In this document: piece by piece, positions 4,867-24,269 of the stretch
Layout of the letters: each line of letters starts with the position of its first letter
How positions within the stretch are numbered: the stretch's first letter is position 1
Assembly (NCBI GenBank): GCA_002269645.1
Contig: NIVC01004078.1
Span: forward strand, 1 to 24,917
DNA length: 24,917 bases
Direction of reading: 5' to 3'
Origin: Macrostomum lignano
Taxonomy: Eukaryota
The notes under the pieces: model-generated
Told to the model about the DNA's origin: nothing
The model's database searches: none
What the model saw: only the letters and a program-made list of their open reading frames with translations
Program-made: the position numbers and the translations under genes

Positions 4867-5217
4867 TCACGACACCAGCACATAGATCATGCAGTAGAGA
4901 TAGTAGAAAAATGAGCACAGATAGATGGCCAATTTAACCCAGCCTTCGCGCATTGCCCTTCGCAACTTGTCGGCATTCATGATGCTGGTGGGGTCGTATA
5001 GGCCTGGCGAGCTCAGCACAGGCCTGTCTATGTACCGTTTCACATGGTAGGCAGCTAGCGGCAGGTTCAGTATGAATGAAAACAACTGGCCGCTGAACAA
5101 GAACATTAGTGACATTAGGGCGTGCACAATGTACTCTGGCAGCACTAGGGAGTTAAGGCTGCGACACTGGTCAATGGGATTCTTGTAATCATTTTGCAGC
5201 TCGTCAAAGGCAATCAC
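4867..5217 (-). CDS. CNIH1: Protein cornichon (CNIH1/cni-type ER cargo receptor), coding exon 2
   Basis: Translates VIAFDELQNDYKNPIDQC...LVLPEY...PGLYDPTSIMN...EGWVKLAIYLCSFFYYLYCMIYVLVS*, the cornichon signature. CAG acceptor at 5220-5218, phase 0. Confidence 0.97.
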   Translation of the reverse strand: MIAFDELQNDYKNPIDQCRSLNSLVLPEYIVHALMSLMFLFSGQLFSFILNLPLAAYHVKRYIDRPVLSSPGLYDPTSIMNADKLRRAMREGWVKLAIYLCSFFYYLYCMIYVLVS

Positions 5218-6189
5218 CTGTTGGATTTGGTAAATGTGTAAGATATTGTTTTACTTCAACTGGCATGGAAATATTTAGTTAATTGCATACTGCTACTCAT
5301 TTAATGTGCCAGCACCCTTGATCCTTGAGTGAGTGCCAATAACCCTTCATGATTGTGTGCCAGCACCCCTGAAAGCACCTCTGAAAGTGCCAATATCCTT
5401 AATACTTAACTAAGTGAGTACCAATAACTTTTCTTTGAAAATCTTCTTTTTCTCTTATACTAATTGTTATAGACTAACTGTTTTTTTAAACTTTCTAATA
5501 AGATCTATGTAATAGAATACAAATAGTTATATATTTTTTAATTAAAAAGTTCATTGGGCTTATAATCTTTTTTTCAAATGAAAAAACTTGCTTAACTCCC
5601 TAAACAGAGACCTTATAGTCAAACCTACCTTATTTGGCTATAGAAGCTTCCAGTCCAATTATAAGTTTTGGTTTAAAATATACTTTTAATATATTTAAAG
5701 CCTATTAAGCTTCTTTATAATTGAATTGCATGAATTTTAAATCTAATTTTAAATACAAAACAATTAAAAAGGCAATATATCAAAAGGGCAATAGTAAAAA
5801 GGTAAAATTTACAAAAAGTAATATATCATAGACCTATATTATGGAAATTTGTAAAACCATTTAGACCTATAATATTATTCATATTTTGCTAAATTCTTTC
5901 AGTTTGTAAAAAAATGAATGAAAAAAAGTCAGTAATCATAGGCTATTCATAGCTCAATGCTCCAATTCTATATACTCACATAGAATTAGAGCTATATACT
6001 ATTGTACTATTAGAATAAATGTAGAAAACCTGTGGACTTATGACATAGGATCTAAAATTATAGGCCCCTAGCTAAAAAGCATGATGCAATTTAGAACATG
6101 TTAACTTTTGCAACAAATACAGGTAATACTAATTAGATGATAAGGCATTTAGCCTTAATAACATATACAGGGGTTATTCCTCTGTCTTT

Positions 6190-6672: not shown

Positions 6673-7956
6673 CTGAGTGGTCTATTGGCTATACTGGTAT
6701 ATATATTTCATGTACTTTGCAAGTCCTTGGGCATTACTGAGATCAGAGGGTCACAGCCTCCAGTTATTCTTACACGTATCACTTCAGATCTATTTCGTAT
6801 TCTCTTACTACTCAATACTACTGTTTTTCAATAGTATCTACTGTATATGCTTCAGTCTATTTCACTCTTATTTCATAAAAGGAATTAACACAGAAAGCAC
6901 TTCTTCAATTCTTATTTTCTCGGAACTCTTACTATTTGCTATTAATCACTTATTGCAAAACCGCGATGCGCGAGGTTGGTTCTCCCTCTGCCAAATTTGC
7001 TTCTATTTATACTATTTTTACTCGTAGGTTAAAACAAAATATATTTGCGCAAAATAATATGAAAAATACGAGTATTAAAACAAAAGAAATTGTGTCTTAG
7101 TTTTGGCATGAATTCAAATTGACTAAATAGTGACTATTTTATAAAGAAATTGGGAGGGGCCCTGTATAAACAGTCATAGTTACTCTTACCATTTATCCAA
7201 AAACTATACTACATTGCAATATTACCTGCTTTGACTTTAGCTGCGATGGGACACTAGAAAATTCCAAAATGATGAGACCATCAGATACCTTTTGGCCATT
7301 TATTCTGATAGGGGGTAGGCTATATATATTCTTCCCATTTTTTAGAATAGAGTACATTGAACTAAATGAACAATAAATAGATTATTGAATTGAAGCCTTA
7401 TTAAGCAAGAACTTTTAGATTACTACTAAATTAAGTAGAACTCCTAATCTTATAGAGAATGAGAACAGTTTTTAAAATGTTTTTTATCTATTTCACACCT
7501 TGCTTTCTTCCTCAACAATACATATTGCATTTATAACTAATTATATAATATTTAGCATATTGCCTTTTGACTAGGCCTATTGCTTATTTGACTATCAAAT
7601 TTTTATTGGTTATCTTTTTTACCTTAAACCTATGCACCCATATAATAAAAATTAGCTTTTTAATTTCAATTAACAATTAACATAGCCTATCTCTAACATA
7701 AACCTAAAAAATATAAATATATATTTGAACTAAAATTAAAAAGCAATTTATATATACTAGTAACTAGGCCTATCTTACCTATGATATATTGAGCATACAG
7801 GCATAAATCAATGTAAGTAAGAAGCAAATGTGACATATAATAAAATAGATAAATTTAAATATAATCTATACAACTATACTGTATAGTATAGGCCTAGTGT
7901 TTATATGCCATTTTATCATATAAACTGAAATTGTGAAAAGTAACTTGAATACTTAC

Positions 7957-9142: not shown

Positions 9143-9147
9143 TCCAC
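9143..9147. repeat. Left target-site duplication TCCAC
   Basis: Identical TCCAC at 14182-14186, immediately after the 3' LTR. Confidence 0.95.
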
Positions 9148-9989
9148 TGTGACGTTGTCAGTTTAAGGTGGTCCCGAAAAGGGCCGTTGGACTGCTGGTT
9201 TTCCATAGTCATTCAACCCTTCAGTTTCACCGCTTCAACTAAACTTTTCCATTCGTTTATTGCGACGTTTACTTGTAGTAGTGCCCAACGATTTTGTGGC
9301 AATTTATAATTCATTGTATATTTTGCTATCCTCTCTCGCCACCGTATAAAATTGGCACGATCGATAATTTTAAGTTCTCTCGCCAGCCAATGAAATCACT
9401 CGTGTTCGCGCTACCCCCCTCTGCGCTCTTTTATTAAACCCCCCGCCTGGCGGCGGGCACTCCACGCTCCCCTCGCTCTCTCTCGCTCCTCTCTCTCCGC
9501 TTGCTCCTTGTTTCCTTCCCTGCGGCCTCTTAGCTGTCTTATCTGTTTGTCTGGCTGCCTCGAGCCTCCTTATTTCTCACCACGGCCCTTCTGTCTGGGC
9601 CAGCCTGCTCACACACTTACTTGACTGTTTCACGCCACGACCGACGCCTACTCACCACTACGTTTCACTGCCTTCACGGTGCTCATAGCCACTGCTCACG
9701 TCACGTCGCCATTGTGTCATTCGCCTGCCACTTGACTTCATATCCAAATTATATTCAACCCATTGCTGCAGCCGCCAGTGCCCAGAAAGCTATAGTCTGT
9801 TTATTGCCAGTAACAACCAAACTTAATACTGATATTAACAATAAAGACAACTACGGCAGTTCCTGCCTTTATCGCCAAGTGCTCCGCTACAAAATCCGCT
9901 TTACAAGAATTGACTTCAACTTATTTTGGGACTAAAACGGCCCTTTTAAGGGTCACCGCATAGCTGGCCGCTACGCCAATAACGTGACA
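9148..9989 (+). repeat. 5' LTR (842 bp)
   Basis: Starts TGTGACGTTG and ends AACGTGACA. CCAAT at ~9387, TTTATTAAA TATA-like at ~9429, AATAAA at 9840-9845. Constant 4,192-bp offset to the 3' copy. Confidence 0.97.
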
Positions 9990-9995
9990 TAATTT

Positions 9996-10012
9996 TGGAG
10001 GTCCCACCGAGA
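9996..10012 (+). promoter_or_regulatory. Primer-binding site complementary to the 3' end of tRNA-Gln(UUG)
   Basis: TGGAGGTCCCACCGAGA is the reverse complement of ...TCTCGGTGGGACCT-CCA, the metazoan tRNA-Gln(TTG) 3' end as I recall it (17 nt). It lies 6 nt after the LTR. Confidence 0.85.
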
Positions 10013-10300
10013 CCAAGCTCAGCACTGCCGGTTCGCAACTAAGCGCCACTGAGATTCTGCTCAACATCAACACGTTCGAAACTAAGCACCACCGAGACGT
10101 CTACTCAGCGCTGCCAACTCGTAATCAGTGCCACCGAGACTCTTGCTCAGCGCTGCCAGCACACAAGCAAGCGCCATCAAGACTTCTGCTCAGCCCTGCC
10201 AGCTCGCAACCAAGCGTCAGCGAGATTCTGCTCAGCCCTGCCAGCTCGCAACCAAGCGTCAGCAAGATTCTGCTCAGCTCTGCCGGCTCGTGACTGAGTG
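10004..10300. repeat. 42-43 bp degenerate tandem array, 7 units, first unit overlapping the PBS
   Basis: CCACCGAGA-like anchors at 10004, 10046, 10089, 10131, 10174, 10217 and 10259. Confidence 0.85.
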
Positions 10301-10324
10301 CCGGCCTGCCACGTTTCTGCCTGA

Positions 10325-10480
10325 CGGTCCGCAAGGCTGCGAGAGCCTGTGCCACGCCTGAGGTTCGGTCCGCAAGGCTACGAGAGCCTGTGCCACGCCT
10401 GAGGTTCGGTCCGCAAGGCTGCGAGAGCCTGTGCCACGCCTGAGGTTCGGTCCGCAAGGCTACGAGAGCCTGTGCCACGT
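10325..10480. repeat. 41-bp tandem array, ~3.8 units, alternating G/A variants (82-bp higher-order unit)
   Basis: CGGTCC anchors at 10325, 10366, 10407 and 10448; variants run GGCTG, GGCTA, GGCTG, GGCTA. Confidence 0.95.
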
Positions 10481-11089
10481 CAGGCCCAGGGGTCCTGACT
10501 GCTCGGCCGGTCTTCGCTCGTCGCCGCGAGTCGTCGCTGGTCGTCGCCCTGAGCAACGCGCGCTGTCAACTGCGTTGAGCTCGAGCTTACGCTCTGCCAA
10601 GATAGCTCCGCTGCGTGTGCCAAGCCACGCCAGGTTACGCTGTGCGCTGATTGTTTGTAGGGACTATTGCCTGACAGTTAGTCTGGGTGGTTTGCGTGAT
10701 AGGACTCTCCCCTGTTATAGGCTTTTTGTGGTTTGCCCCTGTCAGGCACGTATTTTTGTTAGTAGGACGCAATCTCTCTCGTCTCTCTCGCGTCATCAAC
10801 CTCAATTCGTTCTCTCTGGAACCTTACTCTCACTCGTGGTTGCTCCGTTCGCCTCACTCGGGCTCCTGCCTGAGCTTCATCTCGCACAATGTCCGGCAAC
10901 GGGGAAGACTTCGGCATGGCGCCTCCCGAGCCTGTGGCGGACCCAGTCGCCGCACAGGCAGTTAATCCACCAGCCCCAGCCACTGAACCCAGACCCAGCT
11001 ATGGGCGCCCCATCTGCCCACCCGTTAGGTACCGGGCGTGCCAGGTGTCCGGCCTGCTCCAGCTGTAGGGTGGCAAGCATTAGTTTGCT

Positions 11090-11330
11090 CACGCCCCGGG
11101 CAAGGCGTAAAACTACCTCCTGTGGCACCTGTCAGCCACAGGTCTCTGCGGCACCTGTAGACCGCAAGTTCACGCCCCGGGCAAGGCGTAAAACTACCTC
11201 CTGTGGCACCTGTCAGCCACAGGTCTCTGCGGCACCTGTAGACCGCAAGCTCACGCCCCGGGCAAGGCGTTAAACTACCTCCTGTGGCACCTGTTGGCCA
11301 CAGGTCCCTGCGGCATCTGCCAGCCGCAAG
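11090..11330. repeat. 81-bp tandem array, 3 units, each with three hairpins
   Basis: CACGCCCCGG anchors at 11090, 11171 and 11252. Confidence 0.95.
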
Positions 11331-11509
11331 CCACAAAACACAAGCCACAGCTGTTACTCACTGCCAGATACTAGTGTGCACAACTTCCACAGCTGTACCA
11401 GCCAACAGCCAACCACCGTAGTCAAGGGGATAAACTGCAGCGACATTGCAATTTGATAATTTATATAGCTAACTAAAATAAATAAAATAAAAAATAGCTT
11501 AGAATAGTC

Positions 11510-11635
11510 CTATAGCATCCGTTCGGTATTACCAAAGTCGATGAAATGAATAAGTGCGTCATCTCTGACGCTAATAGTAATACCCCGAAACCATGTAATG
11601 TGCAATATACGGTTAGTAATTAAAGCATAACTACT
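11510..11635 (-). pseudogene. Tudor-domain coding fragment carried antisense inside the LTR element
   Basis: Minus strand reads SSYALITNRILHITWFRGITISVRDDALIHFIDFGNTERML*, matching the Tudor consensus W[YF]R[AG]x[VI]...[VI]xF[IV]D[YF]GNxE. T-rich intron-like tracts flank it. No complete reading frame was recovered. Confidence 0.7.
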
Positions 11636-11909
11636 GGCGACTAGTGAAACGCATAAATAACTCAAAAAGGAAAATAAAAACTGAAAAAACAACCATTGAA
11701 AACTCGAGAAAAATATTCTGCCTATAAGAATATAGCTAGCTTAGTTCGCTGCTCAGCCCATTGACGAGTGCAGCATCGCTTTCGCTGTTGTCGGAAATGA
11801 GCTGTAGCTCGTCATTAAATTTCGCAAATTTCATAATGTAGCTAGATAGATATAATACTTGTGGGGTAAAAGTAAGCACTACACACACACACACCGCACC
11901 GCACGCACG

Positions 11910-12485
11910 CTCTCTCTGCCTTTGGCGCGTAGCGCCGTCCTCCGCCTGGCGCGCTGCGCCGTCCTCTGCCTTTGGCGCGTAGCGCCATCCTCTGCCTTGG
12001 CGCGTAGCGCCGTCCTCTGCCTTGGCGCGTAGCGCCGTCCTCTGCCTTTGGCGCGTAGCGCCATCCTCTGCCTTGGCGCGTAGCGCCGTTCTCTGCCTTG
12101 GCGCGTGGCGCCGTTCCCTGCCGTGGCGCCCTGTCGCCGTTTCCTGCCTTGGCGCGTGGCGCCGTTCTCTGCCTTGGCGCGTGGCGCCGTTCCCTGCCGT
12201 GGCGCCCTGTCGCCGTTTCCTGCCTTGGCGCGTGGCGCCGTTCCTTTGCCTGGCGCGCTGCGCCGTCCTCTGCCTTGGCGCTCTTGCGCCGTTCTCCGCC
12301 TGGCGCGCTGCGCCGTCTCCTGCCTTGGCGCGTTGCGCCTTTCTCCGCCTGGCGCGCTGCGCCGTTTTCTGCCTTGGCGCTCCGCGCCGTCCTGTCTCCG
12401 CCTTGGGCGCTCCCTTGCCGGTTTCTCCCTCCCGCCTGTTTGGCGCGCCGCGCCGTGTCCCGCCGCCCTTGGCGCTTGTCGTCGT
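11910..12485. repeat. 24-26 bp minisatellite, ~22 units, each with a GGCGC-NNN-GCGCC inverted motif
   Basis: GGCGC starts at 11924, 11948, 11974, 11999, 12024, 12050, 12075, 12100, 12125, 12151, 12176, 12201, 12227, 12252, 12277, 12302, 12327, 12351, 12376, 12406, 12442 and 12471. There is a 76-bp higher-order duplication (12091-12166 / 12167-12242). Confidence 0.95.
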
Positions 12486-13325
12486 TTGCCCGCAGTTGTC
12501 CGGACTGTGTCTCTGTTTCGTGCCTCTGCTCTGCATCTTTTGCCTCATCCGTCTTGTCACCTTTGTTCTGTGCTCCTTGCCTCATCTGTCTTGTCACCTC
12601 TGTTCGTCCTGTCGTTTTTTTGTGCGTTTGCGTGCCCCGCGCGCTCCGCTCTGCGCTACTTTTGTAACCAATGTTATTCTCACTGCCATACCTACGTTGA
12701 CTTTGATTTTCACCATTCATCTACCTGTATTCATTATTTACTGCAGTCTGTTCCTTTGTTTTCGTATTCCCCTTCAGCCTCTTCACTTCTTTTTGCGAGC
12801 GTGTGAAACATCCCATTTTGTTGCGGTGCCGGACCTCGAAAGCCGGGCGCCATAGGCGTTTTTCAACGCTCTTTCTTTTCTCTGTGCCTGTTTTTTTTCT
12901 TTGCGCCTCTGTGCGCGTGTCTGGGCGGCGCCTGCGTCCCATTGGGGGCGAGCCCATGCGGTCCACCGGGACCGGCCCAGCTGTTGAGCCGTTTGTCGGC
13001 TGGCTGCACCCTGCAGCGGATGCATTCTGCATCGTTTACACACCTTCACTCCACTGCTTCCCTCGCGTGCTAGCTCTTCTTTGTAATGTTCTGTAACTTT
13101 CTGTAATCCTACCACCTGTTCTGTAAGTTGACTTCGATTATTCAGCCACTCATAAGCCTGTGGGTTAGTAATCCCTAAAGCCTCCAGTAATCATATGCTC
13201 ATACAAACTGACTCAACCCCACTGTAATTCATTCTACTGTAATTTCATTTGCTGCGGTCATGCTGTGTTTTTCTTGCCGTCACCCCGCGTGTTGGTTTTC
13301 TTTTTGCGCGACCCTATCCTTTTTC

Positions 13326-13339
13326 GGAAGGGAGGCGAG
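13326..13339 (+). promoter_or_regulatory. Polypurine tract
   Basis: GGAAGGGAGGCGAG directly abuts the 3' LTR and is preceded by a T-run. Confidence 0.85.
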
Positions 13340-14181
13340 TGTGACGTTGTCAGTTTAAGGTGGTCCCGAAAAGGGCCGTTGGACTGCTGGTTTTCCATAG
13401 TCATTCAACCCTTCAGTTTCACCGCTTCAACTAAACTTTTCCATTCGTTTATTGCGACGTTTACTTGTAGTAGTGCCCAACGATTTTGTGGCAATTTATA
13501 ATTCATTGTATATTTTGCTATCCTCTCTCGCCACCGTATAAAATTGGCACGATCGATAATTTTAAGTTCTCTCGCCAGCCAATGAAATCACTCGTGTTCG
13601 CGCTACCCCCCTCTGCGCTCTTTTATTAAACCCCCCGCCTGGCGGCGGGCACTCCACGCTCCCCTCGCTCTCTCTCGCTCCTCTCTCTCCGCTTGCTCCT
13701 TGTTTCCTTCCCTGCGGCCTCTTAGCTGTCTTATCTGTTTGTCTGGCTGCCTCGAGCCTCCTTATTTCTCACCACGGCCCTTCTGTCTGGGCCAGCCTGC
13801 TCACACACTTACTTGACTGTTTCACGCCACGACCGACGCCTACTCACCACTACGTTTCACTGCCTTCACGGTGCTCATAGCCACTGCTCACGTCACGTCG
13901 CCATTGTGTCATTCGCCTGCCACTTGACTTCATATCCAAATTATATTCAACCCATTGCTGCAGCCGCCAGTGCCCAGAAAGCTATAGTCTGTTTATTGCC
14001 AGTAACAACCAAACTTAATACTGATATTAACAATAAAGACAACTACGGCAGTTCCTGCCTTTATCGCCAAGTGCTCCGCTACAAAATCCGCTTTACAAGA
14101 ATTGACTTCAACTTATTTTGGGACTAAAACGGCCCTTTTAAGGGTCACCGCATAGCTGGCCGCTACGCCAATAACGTGACA
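13340..14181 (+). repeat. 3' LTR (842 bp)
   Basis: I found no difference from the 5' LTR in a line-by-line visual comparison. Confidence 0.97.
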
Positions 14182-14338
14182 TCCACTAGGCCTACATAAA
14201 ACAAGTAACTTAGCATAAAGTAAATACTTTGTTGCATATTTATCCCAAATTTTTGCATAGCTAGCCTAGCATTACTACTAGGCCTAGTAATGGTTGCTTA
14301 ATAAACTGATAGTGATAGATTTGATAGATATAATCATA

Positions 14339-15160: not shown

Positions 15161-16144
15161 CATTTTTAATATAGTATATATACTAGTATTGTATTTTTTA
15201 CATATCAAATAGTCTATTAATGGCCTAGAATTTCTTACTTGTATTTCTTAAAATAACTCTTATTTGTAAATTTTTTAGCAGCTATCTAGGTATTTAACCA
15301 TTAGTCCTTAGGTGTTACCAAGATTAGTTAGAGGGTTGTTGAACTTAATACTATGTATGCATTTCTAATATATTTTTTGTTTCACTTTGATCTCTTTAGT
15401 ATTCTGTGTATTAATAGGATATATAGCATGATTCCTTTTTATGTTACTCTTCAAAAAGAGTAAGTGTTTGAATTAATTTCTATGTTTCTGAACATAGAAT
15501 ATTTACTAGATAAAAAAGGTAGAAAAGGTTAATAAGTTGGTTGGTTTACTAGCCAGACTGCATCTATTTATACTGCCTAAGAAGCCTAGTCAAAATTGAT
15601 TTTATGATACATGATTAAAATACTAGCATTGTAAAAAAATTAGAGGTGAATATTATTTTTCAGTTTTAAAATGTATACAAACTTAATATGAATATTATTT
15701 TTGAACTAAAGAAAAGAGTTTTACAAAATATTTGATATTATTATTAATCTAATAAAATACTTAACCAATTTTTAATGAAAGCTTTTATTATTACCATTAG
15801 TAGCACTCAGACAATGTTTACTTGGTAAACTTAGGTTAAGATAGGTGAAATATACAAGCTAGTTGCCTAAAACTTCCTGTTTTTACAAGCTTTATTTTAT
15901 CATGATATTTGATAATAGCATTTTTATTTACAAAAAAGTAGATTCTATATATTATAAATTTTATTTATTTCTGAGTTAGGTTACAGTCTATGACTTAAAT
16001 ATACCATTGTCATTGTAGACATATTTGGTTGGTTTGGCTCTCAGGCTTGAATTGATCGAATTTATATACCCCAATGGTGCCCTGATCTAAGATTAATGAA
16101 TATAATCTGACTATAATACAATGACTTAACTATTTCAGCTTCCA

Positions 16145-16792
16145 ATGATGCCCTGCCAAAGCCCAACAGGCAATGCAGCCACCACTGGTGAATCAGTTTT
16201 GGCAGGCACAGCTGATGGCATTGATGGCGATGTTGAAGATTCTGAGCAGCAGCAGCAGCAGCAGTATGAAATGTATGGCTACGCTCCCATTGGTTCCACG
16301 CACTCCGATGATTCCGACTCTGATTCAGAACACGTTTCGGGCAATGCTGATTTTGAGCATTTTCCAGACGAGCACGCAGCAGAGGCAGGCGCCGAAATTG
16401 AAGAGGCCGAGCCTGTCGAGACCCCCGGCCTCGACCGGCTGATCGAGCGACAGCTGGCGGCGGACGAACTTTTGCCATCTGGCAGCGGCGGCGCCGGCAG
16501 CGACTCTCTGTCGGTGTTCGCCCAGCCGCCGCCGGCCGACCCGGCCTCTTCCCTGGCGGCCGTGTGGCGCGGGCCGCCCCGGCCAGCCGCCGGCATCAGC
16601 GAGGCCGAGGCCGCCAAAATTCGCGAGGCGATGCGCGGCGTCCGCCTGCCGGCCGGCGCGGCGCCAGACTGGGCGCACCGCCTGCCCGAGCGCGAGTGGA
16701 AGGACCTGCTGGTGGCTCGGCTGTCTGCCGCCGCCGCCGCCCCCGTCTCTGCAGATGCACCGTCCGGCAGTGGGGTTGACGACTCCCAATAA
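16145..16792 (+). CDS. MEA1: Male-enhanced antigen 1-like protein (single coding exon, 215 aa)
   Basis: Acidic N-terminal half with GYAPI and a poly-Q6 run. The C-terminal IREAMRGVRLPAGAAPDWAHRLPEREWKDLL matches the conserved MEA1 motif (M.G..LP....P.WA......W). Confidence 0.85.
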   Translation: MMPCQSPTGNAATTGESVLAGTADGIDGDVEDSEQQQQQQYEMYGYAPIGSTHSDDSDSDSEHVSGNADFEHFPDEHAAEAGAEIEEAEPVETPGLDRLIERQLAADELLPSGSGGAGSDSLSVFAQPPPADPASSLAAVWRGPPRPAAGISEAEAAKIREAMRGVRLPAGAAPDWAHRLPEREWKDLLVARLSAAAAAPVSADAPSGSGVDDSQ

Positions 16793-20945: not shown

Positions 20946-21640
20946 GATTTTGCCCATCTAGCTCGTAGATAAAAAACTCCACGAGGGACAAATGCGCAAC
21001 AGGCCGTTTTTGATTCAGAAGCTAAATTCAATCCTTTTTTTCAAACCTCGTATCACAGTTGTAAATTTGAGTTTTTTATGCACGTAACTTGATTAGACTA
21101 CTACTGAGTTCAGTAGGATTACGCGTGTAAATACGCTGAAATGACGTGCACCAATACTAGAGGAGTCAAATGCTGATATGGATCAGTAAAATGTGCAACG
21201 TCTGCACAATACGAACCGTATCTGCACAGCAATCCAGCAATCCTGACCAAGCGCTCTGGCCAGCCAATGCCGGTCTGAACGCTCTTATCCTTATCGAATC
21301 TGAGCGAGCGCACATTGCCGGCAGCCACAGGAAGCTACGGCTGGAGGCTCTGCACACAGGTTTGCATGATAGGAGAGAGTGGGGGTGAGAGATGTACGGA
21401 CAGGAGAGCGATCGGATCGCCTTATCTGCGGCGCTGCAAGGGTTTCGAGAGCTGGCTTTGTTAATGATGACGTGGCCTGAAAGACTGGAGGGAGAGAGGC
21501 AGACAGCGGGGTCAGGGTTCGGCTCGTCCCGGCTTAAAAGCTGCGCATCTGGAACTGCACGCGGGAACGGAGAGAGACCAGAAGTTAAAGGGTGAATACT
21601 TTACCAGCGAAGCGAACTTTGCATTACCAACGAAGCAAGC

Positions 21641-24269
21641 ATGCTGCGCAGTCATTCGCTCTGCTGGCTATACTTGGCTTGTGTATGCGCACAGCTGAGC
21701 ATCGCATTTGAGCCTGGCGTGCAGTACACCTACCAGTACGAGACCGACACTGTACTGAGCGAGCTGCAGCAGCAGACAGACGCCAAACACGCTGGTCGGC
21801 TGGTTTTCAAATCCAATCTGAGCTTGGTGCGCCTGAAGTTCGCCAATGGACTGTCAGCCCTGAGGCTTTGCTTCCTGACGGCATCCATGAGCAACGGCCT
21901 GGCGGCAGCAGCGACTGACGCACAACCGCCAGCCGACTCGGAGTTCCTGCTGACCGCTCAGGAGCCCAGCATGCCGGCCTGGTTCGGCTCCGTGGTCGCG
22001 CCGGAGCGTGTCGAACAGTTGTGGCTGAATTTGGCCCGCGGTGTGGCCTCGTTGTTGCGCTACCAGGACGCCAACGGCCAGTCCGTGGAGCGAGTCGCCG
22101 ACACCATGGGAGAGTGCGGCCTGTCGTTCACCTCGCTGCCGTCGGAGAACGGAAAGCGGCGGCTGGAGAAGCGCGCCGAGGCGTGCGAAAACGTCGAGCT
22201 GTCCGGCGAGCGGGACTCCGTCAATCCGCTGTTCGCCGTCCGCCGCCGCAACCCGGCCAGCTCGGTCACCGTTCTAGAATTCAGCGATAACAGCAACGGC
22301 CAGCCAGTGTCAGTGTCAGCCAGCGAAAGTCACGAGCTGCTGCCTCTCCGACTACCCGGCGATTTTGGCCTCCGAGTGACGTCCAGCAGCCGTCTAACCT
22401 TGTTGAAAGCCGAGCCAGCCACGGCTGCACCTGTCCCAGAGTTTGAGACCCTCTCCGCTTACCTGCAGTCTACTGGCAGACCAACCCGAGAGGTCGCCCT
22501 GCCAACATCACCAGAGACAGCCGACAGACCGGACACCGCAGCTCGCCTGGCTGAGTTCCTGTCTCGCCTGGCAGCTCAGACGGCCGGCCAGGCGAGCCAT
22601 TCAGCAGAGGCTCTGTCGCTGGTGCAAGGTCTACCGCTGGCTCGCGGAGCGCGCGATCAGGCGGCGCTTCGGCGGCAACTGGAGCTGGCGTTGGGCAAGT
22701 GGCAGCTTCCCGCGGTGCTGGAACTGTTTGCGGCCTGTGGCACCAGACCTTGCCTTGGCGCCCTGTTCGACTTTGTTGCTAAGAATCTTGACAATCTTGA
22801 CGACTCCGTATTGGAGCGGCTGCTGCTCTCGGTTGCCCAGGTAAGCCGAGTAGGCCGACCCTTGCTGGAGCGAGCCCGGGACCTCCTGGCACGCCTCGAG
22901 GCCGCCAAACGAACTGAAGCTGCGCAGTCCGCTCTGCACGCGCTGGCAACGCTTAGCAGAAAGTGGGCGGCGGCAAACAAAAGAAATTCAGACGTTTCAG
23001 GCCTGCTGCTGGACCGCCTGGCTGCTTGCGAAGCCGTCGAGGACATCGACTGCCAGCTGGCGGTCCTGTCCGCCATGTCCAACTGCCCCAGCCCCCTCTA
23101 CCGGACGCCGATTCTGCGTGGCCTCCTGGCGAACGGCACCGCTGGCTCCCAGGCTACCGTGGCACGACTTCGCGTTCTGCAAGTCTCTGGCCCACTGGAC
23201 GTCCAGCAGCGAAGCCACCTTGTTGGGCTGCTCCGCCAGCGCCACGTACCGCTCAGCAACCCGATGCGCTACGCCATCTCGGCGGCTCTGGGCGGCCCGG
23301 TGGCCTGTCCTGAATGTACCGAACGCCTGCGTCGGAGCGCAGATCTCTGGCTGCCGATTCGCCGGCGCCACAGCCGGCAGCTGCCCTCCGGCCCAGAGGA
23401 AATTCTGGAGCCGCTCACCTCGTCCGCCTACCGACGGGGCTTGCTTTTTCGCGACGGAAACGTCGGCTTTGAGTTTGACCTCCTCGGCAACAAGCTCGGC
23501 GGTATTCGCCTGTCCGACTTTCGCCTGGCCTTCAACAGTTCCGACCAATCAGCGGGGCTGGACATTCTCGGCGTGAGACTGTACGCGGACGCCGTCGACA
23601 GCCTCTTGGACAGCGGCGGTGGCGGCCAGGGCAGCGCAGCCAGTCCGGATGACGAGCTCCTCGAGGAGGCCACAGCCGGCCTGCAGCTGAGCGTGTTGGG
23701 TGAGTGGCTGCGGCCTCGGCGCTTCTTCACGGGCAGCTCCGGGCTGATGTCGGCCGTGTGGAATGCTCCCGAGGAGCCGGTCAACGTCTTGCAAGCCAGT
23801 TTCCAGCTGCACGACTTTGCAACCCGACTGCACCTGCAGAACGGCCTGATTGTGCAGGCGGCTCTGACCGGCTCCGCGGCCCTGAGTGTCTCCGGCTCCC
23901 TGTCGGTGAGCATTTGGAATCGGGACGCAGCCTCCCGAGTCCTGAACTCCATCGGGGCGGCGCTCAACGCTCAGGCGAGCCTCGGGCGGGCCACCACTCC
24001 GTTGAATTTGTCAGCCAGGCGCACGCCGAGCTCAGCAACAACTTCGTCACCTTTGTTGGCTTCGCCGAGGCGCCCGTCGCACCTGCTTGGTCATGTCCAA
24101 CTCGGCGGCGGCTGTGGCGCACAACTGTCACGTGACCGATTCCGTTGGGCCGCGCTACGACCGGCACAGTCACGATTTCTACCTGCCCGGCCGAACCTTC
24201 TCTATGGGGCCGCGCAATGACCAGCTGTGCGTTGAGCTGGCGCCAGATGGGGACGGGGTGGATGATTAG
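21641..24269 (+). CDS. MTTP: Microsomal triglyceride transfer protein large subunit (large lipid transfer protein family), intronless, two -1 frameshifts near the 3' end; ~876 aa if corrected
   Basis: Signal peptide, then FEPGVQYTYQYET and DTMGEC (vitellogenin/MTP N-terminal barrel), a helical domain, and SSAY...LRPRRFFTG...LQNGL...SGSLSVSIWNR (MTP C-sheet). MTP-like sequence continues in two shifted frames: EFVSQAHAELSNNFVTFVGFAEAP, then TCLVM...LPGRTFSMGPRNDQLC...DD* (TAG 24267-24269). Confidence 0.9.

Follow-up and report, generated by a model that had tools for sequence, protein, structure and literature searches.

The closest described counterparts of the element reported here are retrotransposons that have captured pieces of host silencing genes. 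In Drosophila melanogaster, the TART-A element carries pieces of the nxf2 gene (63–228 bp, 93–96% identity), for which small-RNA support has been presented (PMC7785250), and telomeric elements of Zaprionus and Drosophila are described as having captured aub and piwi repeatedly (PMC13534243). RNA-based counter-defence by animal transposons is known from Drosophila telomeric LINEs. These are special elements, being needed by their host. Here we analyze a young, active Ty3/gypsy family from the flatworm Macrostomum lignano, which carries a cassette of pieces antisense to several host genes, and one copy of which lies in the window (the whole stretch of 24,917 nucleotides that was analyzed, contig NIVC01004078.1). 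This copy is non-autonomous and occupies positions 9148–14181 of the window, with the following features:

9143–9147 and 14182–14186: target-site duplication of 5 bp, flanking both LTRs
9148–9989, plus strand: 5' LTR, 842 bp, with TG...CA ends
9996–10012, plus strand: primer-binding site just past the left LTR, which we take to be the complement of the 3' end of tRNA-Gln
10889–11068, plus strand: 59-codon remnant, a Gag-like start joined to the last codons of Pol
11089–11331, plus strand: three tandem repeats of 81 nt, downstream of the pol stop
11346–11391, minus strand: module H3, 85% identical over 46 nt to a 42-nt unit of host gene H; the weakest module
11494–11511: deletion junction, where about 390 bp with two modules matching gene G are gone in comparison with intact siblings
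11515–11563, minus strand: module A, 86% identical over 49 nt to host gene A at the aromatic-cage motif of its first Tudor domain
11753–11834, minus strand: module H5, 84% identical to the first ~85 coding bases of the C2H2-type host gene H
11908–12400, plus strand: GC-rich array of ~25-nt repeats
13326–13339, plus strand: polypurine tract directly before the right LTR
13340–14181, plus strand: 3' LTR, with no difference from the 5' LTR over its whole length

The paired LTRs with TG...CA ends, the duplication, the primer site and the purine tract make up the structure of a Ty3/gypsy LTR element, and they bear out the claim of an earlier, sequence-only reading that a Tudor-like stretch lies antisense inside a mobile LTR element. 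Its LTRs being identical, the insertion is very recent; that the element reads on the plus strand follows from the position of the primer site behind the left LTR and of the purine tract before the right one, and the copy is classified as non-autonomous because its gag-pol has been deleted. Beyond module A, a fainter codon-by-codon likeness extends to about position 11593, and module H5 of the window forms an ATG-started frame of 32 codons, which runs to position 11736. The insertion is flanked by ordinary host genes, namely cornichon, MEA1 and a lipid-transfer gene of the MTP/vitellogenin type (window 4867–5250, 16130–16792 and 21596–24220). The segment 12690–13080 of the window is found in non-autonomous copies of the window type, is absent from the autonomous ones and recurs in unrelated repeats.

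The search of the 764-Mb genome of M. lignano itself revealed at least 35 further places with the Tudor-like stretch, many of them in autonomous Ty3/gypsy copies with long pol frames. One autonomous relative (locus L065) shows the Pol order protease–RT–RNase H–integrase, and one complete copy of 10,342 bp has a single gag-pol frame of 1930 codons. In this family the cassette lies between the pol stop and the 3' LTR, i.e. in the 3' untranslated region; it measures 840 bp and contains three Tudor-like motifs in intact copies, versus 454 bp and one motif in the window. All modules are antisense to pol, and hence antisense on the element's own RNA, and their order differs by lineage (H-A-G in some, H-G-A in others). 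At least one module is present in 37 of 41 integrase-bearing copies and a Tudor module in 35 (H5 in 34, A in 30, G in 28 and H3 in 22), where the 41 copies are those examined out of 44 integrase matches at ≥93%, several loci span only 3 kb, and the score threshold overlooks weaker G modules. The carriers include lineages with LTRs merely 65–80% like those of the youngest. Four integrase-bearing copies show no module, and neither do nine non-autonomous siblings of the window copy; as these nine have spread, the cassette is not needed in cis. The latter lineage (L246–L254, 87–99% like the window copy) multiplied after the loss of the equivalent of window 11155–11947, and both sides of the deletion are visible in eight of the nine. 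Assembled contigs of four public runs, which drop rare forms and give neither strand nor level, cover the cassette unspliced, and the joints listed for them lack canonical intron ends.

In the sister families, no match to the host exons of the cassette was found among the matches listed for 20 loci (integrase 39–94% identical; two of the loci belong to the window's own family). For one sister family, the genome search with its AT-rich stretch yielded only its own copies. Among the sister families as a whole, four scanned antisense frames out of 67 listed gave no Pfam match, so that cassettes against other genes are possible there. One sister family (L225:1597–1896, minus strand) has a 100-codon stop-free antisense frame beside its 3' LTR, which has no Pfam match and is broken in another copy. 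In the Gag-Pol of autonomous copies of the family under study (L155:102–1529, minus strand; G000:C3014), a cold-shock domain (Pfam CSD, 31.1 bits, cut-off 27) follows the zinc knuckle and precedes the protease, which gives a Lin28-like domain pair; a literature search on this point listed no related report.

The cassette consists of host-gene pieces of 41–100 nt, 75–91% identical to their sources and set in AT-rich spacers. Three donors were identified: two extended-Tudor genes, A and G, each represented by its aromatic-cage motif and recognized by comparison at the DNA level with most of the Tudor loci located in the genome, and the C2H2 gene H, represented by two pieces. Module A of intact siblings is 88–90% identical to host gene A over 50 nt, and module G, the third motif, is 90% identical over 41 nt to the last Tudor domain of host gene G, while the other Tudor cores (n=30) match at most 28/45 and 27/36 positions. 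Triplication of a single captured motif was thereby ruled out, as the motifs match two different genes best. Module H5 is 75–91% identical to gene H across copies, and module H3 matches the 42-nt unit downstream of the gene H coding exons, the exact form of which is found at two H loci only. When the cassette was shuffled 100 times and compared with the same host sequences, no score reached 50 bits (maximum 38.3), and contigs of genes A and G from the public runs align to the element over the modules only. Thus, because the donors differ, all pieces are antisense and the scores lie beyond those of shuffled sequences, we regard the cassette as a string of host pieces in spacers and not as a gene. 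The host donor gene that the sequence-only reading had called for was found, namely an exon of Tudor gene A. Its two quoted peptides are indeed present, one on the minus strand at 11593–11522 and the other in a different frame upstream; the latter, taken for a helix preceding the Tudor core, turned out to be identical at 24 of 29 positions to the N-terminus of the C2H2-type host protein H.

Gene A (Mlig032908/Mlig024414) encodes two extended Tudor domains and gene G (Mlig016595) three, preceded in the latter by an N-terminal part that looks RRM-like and has no Pfam match. Neither has a named orthologue, and neither gene name was found in the papers and supplements searched, including the accessible parts of PMC5730564, PMC5816591 and PMC12896417. 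Gene H (Mlig014983g9) encodes a C2H2-type protein, for which the sequence search revealed no homologue outside M. lignano (the second match being a repeat protein) and the Atlas no usable match; its single-sequence model (pLDDT 45) is too poor for a structure search. Most host genes of M. lignano are present in three copies. Extended-Tudor genes form a class tied to the piRNA pathway and its biogenesis (PMC12147562). A, G and H may all act in transposon defence. Among the copies of gene H (L161, L163, L164), one pair shares its first 62 codons without a difference and lies 25% from the third copy, and another pair is closest beyond codon 110; such mosaics suggest that the copies have recombined and that the zinc-finger region changes fast. 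The unit of 42 nt to which module H3 corresponds occurs in about 15 tandem copies at one H locus (L181 about 6900–7580, G000:C2623) and singly at another, and is located between the H coding exons and MBTPS1, which shares the gene-model number of H, hinting that the two form one transcription unit. Behind a broken H copy lies a decayed stretch that resembles an HD domain (L166 and L240, G000:C255 about 361600–372400) and is presumably SAMHD1-like. A disrupted member of the element family is found a few kb from this broken copy and points toward it; antisense pieces could, among other routes, have been captured by read-through at this place. In all three host copies, a broken duplicate of the start of the element-matched exon (L061:7710–7900, L062, L063) lies about 3 kb past gene A and keeps bases shared with the older element lineages.

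The best explanation of these observations, to which we assign a probability of about 60%, is anti-silencing at the RNA level, through element-sense small RNAs directed against genes A, G and H. The piRNA ping-pong would cut the element RNA into element-sense piRNAs, and those from the cassette, being antisense to the A, G and H mRNAs, would guide their cleavage; alternatively, direct RNA duplexes could be read by Dicer or RdRP. Lowered levels of the Tudor and zinc-finger mRNAs would then weaken the silencing of the element. The codons of the aromatic cage may have been chosen since they are the ones that the host can change least, and the effect would be exerted in trans, so that copies without a cassette would profit without paying. 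Transposon-sense piRNAs of M. lignano have been described in ping-pong pairs (PMC4604429), and the genome has RNA-dependent RNA polymerase genes at nine loci (G000:C1144, C721, C18, C593, C2211, C1147, C172, C920, C482), whose products could boost targeting by antisense RNA or provide antisense host RNA to be captured. In terms of computed pairing potential, intact copies have 5–15 different 30-mers with at most 3 differences to the host copies A2, A3, G and H1. For the copies A1, H2 and H3 none of the 30-mers comes within 4 differences, and these may be copies that escaped or simply poor matches; the window copy itself has no 30-mer within 3 differences of any A copy. Several considerations count against the preferred RNA-level explanation. 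Host sense piRNAs from the matched sites would also strike the element, and the identity of the modules is borderline by analogy with Drosophila, where captures at 79–82% identity showed almost no targeting according to PMC13534243. Further points against it, detailed below, are the invariant site of gene G, the wide divergence of gene H, the equal conservation of modules and spacers, the lack of a G:U bias and the siblings that spread without a module. Of the three roles put forward by the sequence-only reading, the one in which the segment yields small RNAs directed at a host gene agrees best with these data and a protein decoy is unsupported; the host origin of the segment and a possible link to silencing have gained support.

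The signs of a conflict between element and host differ between the three donors: faster host evolution at the captured site is seen for gene A, is absent for gene G and is not confined to the site for gene H. In all these comparisons, host-site variation was assessed among copies within one genome. In the three host copies of gene A, 11 of 70 matched sites vary, versus 43/1397 elsewhere (P=2.5e-5), and the variation includes amino-acid changes in and beside the cage. By comparison, no site varies in the unmatched second Tudor core of the same gene (0/45), and 3 of 225 vary in five control cores, a count that leaves out two failed control gene sets and one with a wrong site. For gene G, the matched site is invariant among host copies (0/45), and its GC3 there, 9/19 vs 100/127, ranks below that of every other row among 28, with the unmatched core of gene A second lowest. 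The copies of gene H diverge over ~110 codons, past the 34 matched ones, with many amino-acid changes.

On the side of the element, four sites separate the three working A copies from the broken duplicate exon, and the number of host-like bases at these sites rises from 0/4 in the deepest element lineages through intermediates to 4/4 in the youngest (Spearman 0.76 for 16 haplotypes, which are not independent). This gradient was obtained from 31 of 40 rows, those with a pol-tail alignment of ≥300 nt, and its polarity assumes that valine is the residue usual in Tudor domains. The differences between element haplotypes are skewed to synonymous ones in the host frame (A 11:18, G 10:7, H 16:28, vs ~20% expected), in a count that drops one G-type row for A, one A-type row for G and one shifted row for H. 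Such a skew is expected if the element follows a protein-constrained target, and it is seen also in module A, which mostly lacks a start codon. The A and G cores exhibit no indels across eight lineages.

The tracking of host sequences would also be accounted for by a neutral history, in which antisense host pieces were picked up once and then, by virtue of the shared sequence, refreshed through recombination with the same or related host sequences (template switching, or gene conversion at ectopic sites, with either partner as donor), a process that could add variation to the host sites without any benefit to the element. We regard this possibility as unlikely, yet several observations speak for it. 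Conservation of the modules between lineages is no better than that of the spacers (A 37–43/45, H5 61–80/83, spacer 83–94% of aligned bases), i.e. they diverge as fast; the flanks of the Tudor pieces have decayed; many G modules resemble an A-type start joined to a G-type core, as homology-driven switching would produce; the differences compatible with G:U pairing show no enrichment (30 vs 24, P=0.5); and there are the nine siblings that spread without a cassette and the four integrase-bearing copies without a module. What neutrality leaves unexplained is that two of the three donors are extended-Tudor genes, always represented by the cage motif, that all pieces have a single orientation, and that the cassette has been retained in 37 of 41 copies versus no match in the 20 sister-family loci.

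The same synonymous skew would suit a different explanation, namely that translation of an antisense transcript yields a peptide of 31–46 residues copying the N-terminal helix of protein H, and perhaps short Tudor-motif peptides, which would disturb the host protein. Module H5 is the mainstay of this idea: 38 of its 42 copies have an in-frame ATG, where the host-like one has been lost, an ATG further upstream, placed at any of three spacings, keeps the frame, most of its indels preserve the frame, and in many copies an AG shortly precedes the ATG, like in the host gene. Moreover, a frame of 125 codons without a stop traverses two Tudor motifs in intact copies, with a Pfam TUDOR E of 1.3e-4, which falls short of the cut-off. 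Nonetheless, a decoy peptide seems improbable to us, as an in-frame ATG precedes module A in only 8 of 41 module copies and many lineages have in-frame stops just before or after it, yet it shows the same kind of synonymous skew, and one lineage keeps a second H-like piece that is out of frame with the ATG. Besides, a Tudor motif of 12–15 residues is unable to form a barrel, which, as established for Tudor-domain structures, requires more than that. The sequence-only reading had envisaged a larger product, an intron-containing extended-Tudor cargo gene, the protein of which would compete for methylated PIWI tails. The Tudor motif is real and antisense, as this reading holds, and its likeness stands at the DNA level (86% over 49 nt to a host Tudor exon in the window, 88–90% over 50 nt in siblings). 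A whole domain is absent: the match spans the β2–β4 part alone (26 residues), the Pfam TUDOR scores (E=0.13 and 0.029) fall under the cut-off, and the window frame meets a stop two codons past the motif. The introns proposed to join the pieces were not recovered, for no donor-like site lies between them and they derive from different genes. An intact Tudor ORF is missing from the siblings as well, since the 42 matches include no full domain, and among the traceable ones of 150 scored TUDOR matches none is an element. Since the pieces have different source genes, too little length to fold as Tudor domains and no common frame, the Tudor protein-decoy reading fails, and we consider a cargo gene very improbable; the Tudor-like stretch is one module of an antisense cassette. 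A hairpin microRNA found no support: the folding signals are local and inconsistent, with the lowest z of about −3.9 at a palindrome shared with the host gene, and no Rfam family was found at the cut-off.

If anti-silencing at the RNA level is the function of the cassette, a bolder version of it can be proposed tentatively, at somewhat less than even odds. The cassette might be a self-updating, multiplexed array of antisense guides against defence genes, by which the silencing of the element would itself weaken the silencing machinery, and which would aim at an orphan zinc-finger gene and, in two Tudor genes, at the codons least free to mutate. Such an array would name an unknown flatworm factor of transposon defence (gene H), and the copies without a cassette would be free riders.

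In the literature covered (mainly open papers, with the 2020 classification of M. lignano LTR elements outside its scope), we found no LTR element with captured pieces of Tudor or piRNA genes and no report of such a cassette for M. lignano. The Ty3/gypsy (Ty3/Mdg4) elements of PMC12801592 have the superfamily and the host in common with ours, while the topic of that paper is heat-shock elements; its main text does not use the words 'antisense', 'Tudor' or 'piRNA', and a search of the six family files in its supplement 5, which covered the first 400 characters of long cells, revealed none of three short motifs of our family. Rice miR820 in CACTA transposons provides a parallel in that a small RNA borne by a transposon is aimed at a silencing gene (OsDRM2) and that guide and target change together, but it is a hairpin microRNA of a plant DNA transposon and is described as experimentally tested (PMC3459959), whereas no common hairpin precursor was found in the M. 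lignano cassette. The aub and piwi captures share with that cassette the repeated capture, the amplification of pieces within the element and the turnover between lineages, and resemble it at gene A in the acceleration of the host at the captured region; they differ in their targets (PIWI genes, nxf2 and one F-box gene), in fragment length (140–235 bp) and in that all carriers described are telomeric LINEs (PMC13534243, where 'Tudor' does not occur in the main text). TART-A with nxf2 is the counterpart for short host pieces in the 3' UTR of a retrotransposon, for a proposed piRNA-guided lowering of a silencing gene and for faster host evolution at the captured site, the last seen in M. lignano at gene A only (PMC7785250). 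As in elements of the TART-A kind, host fragments are located in an untranslated region and are common to most family members. According to the same source, TART belongs to the telomeric non-LTR elements and has a single donor, in contrast to an LTR element with three donors and pieces of 41–100 nt at 75–91% identity; it is said to act via element-antisense piRNAs (PMC7785250), from which a sense-oriented piece can be deduced, whereas the M. lignano pieces are antisense, as known from sequence alone.

If our explanation is correct, an ordinary dispersed flatworm LTR family would show that the strategy is general, and it would do so with a new design, in which several genes are addressed through a conserved motif, antisense on the element's own RNA; host defence genes could then be found by reading what transposons target. 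M. lignano is amenable to experiments on these questions, with RNAi, transgenesis and published small-RNA libraries. By analogy, the cassette would thus resemble the anti-silencing elements that have captured host genes, while differing from them in the class of the element, the phylum, the number and kind of targets, the length of the fragments and their orientation.
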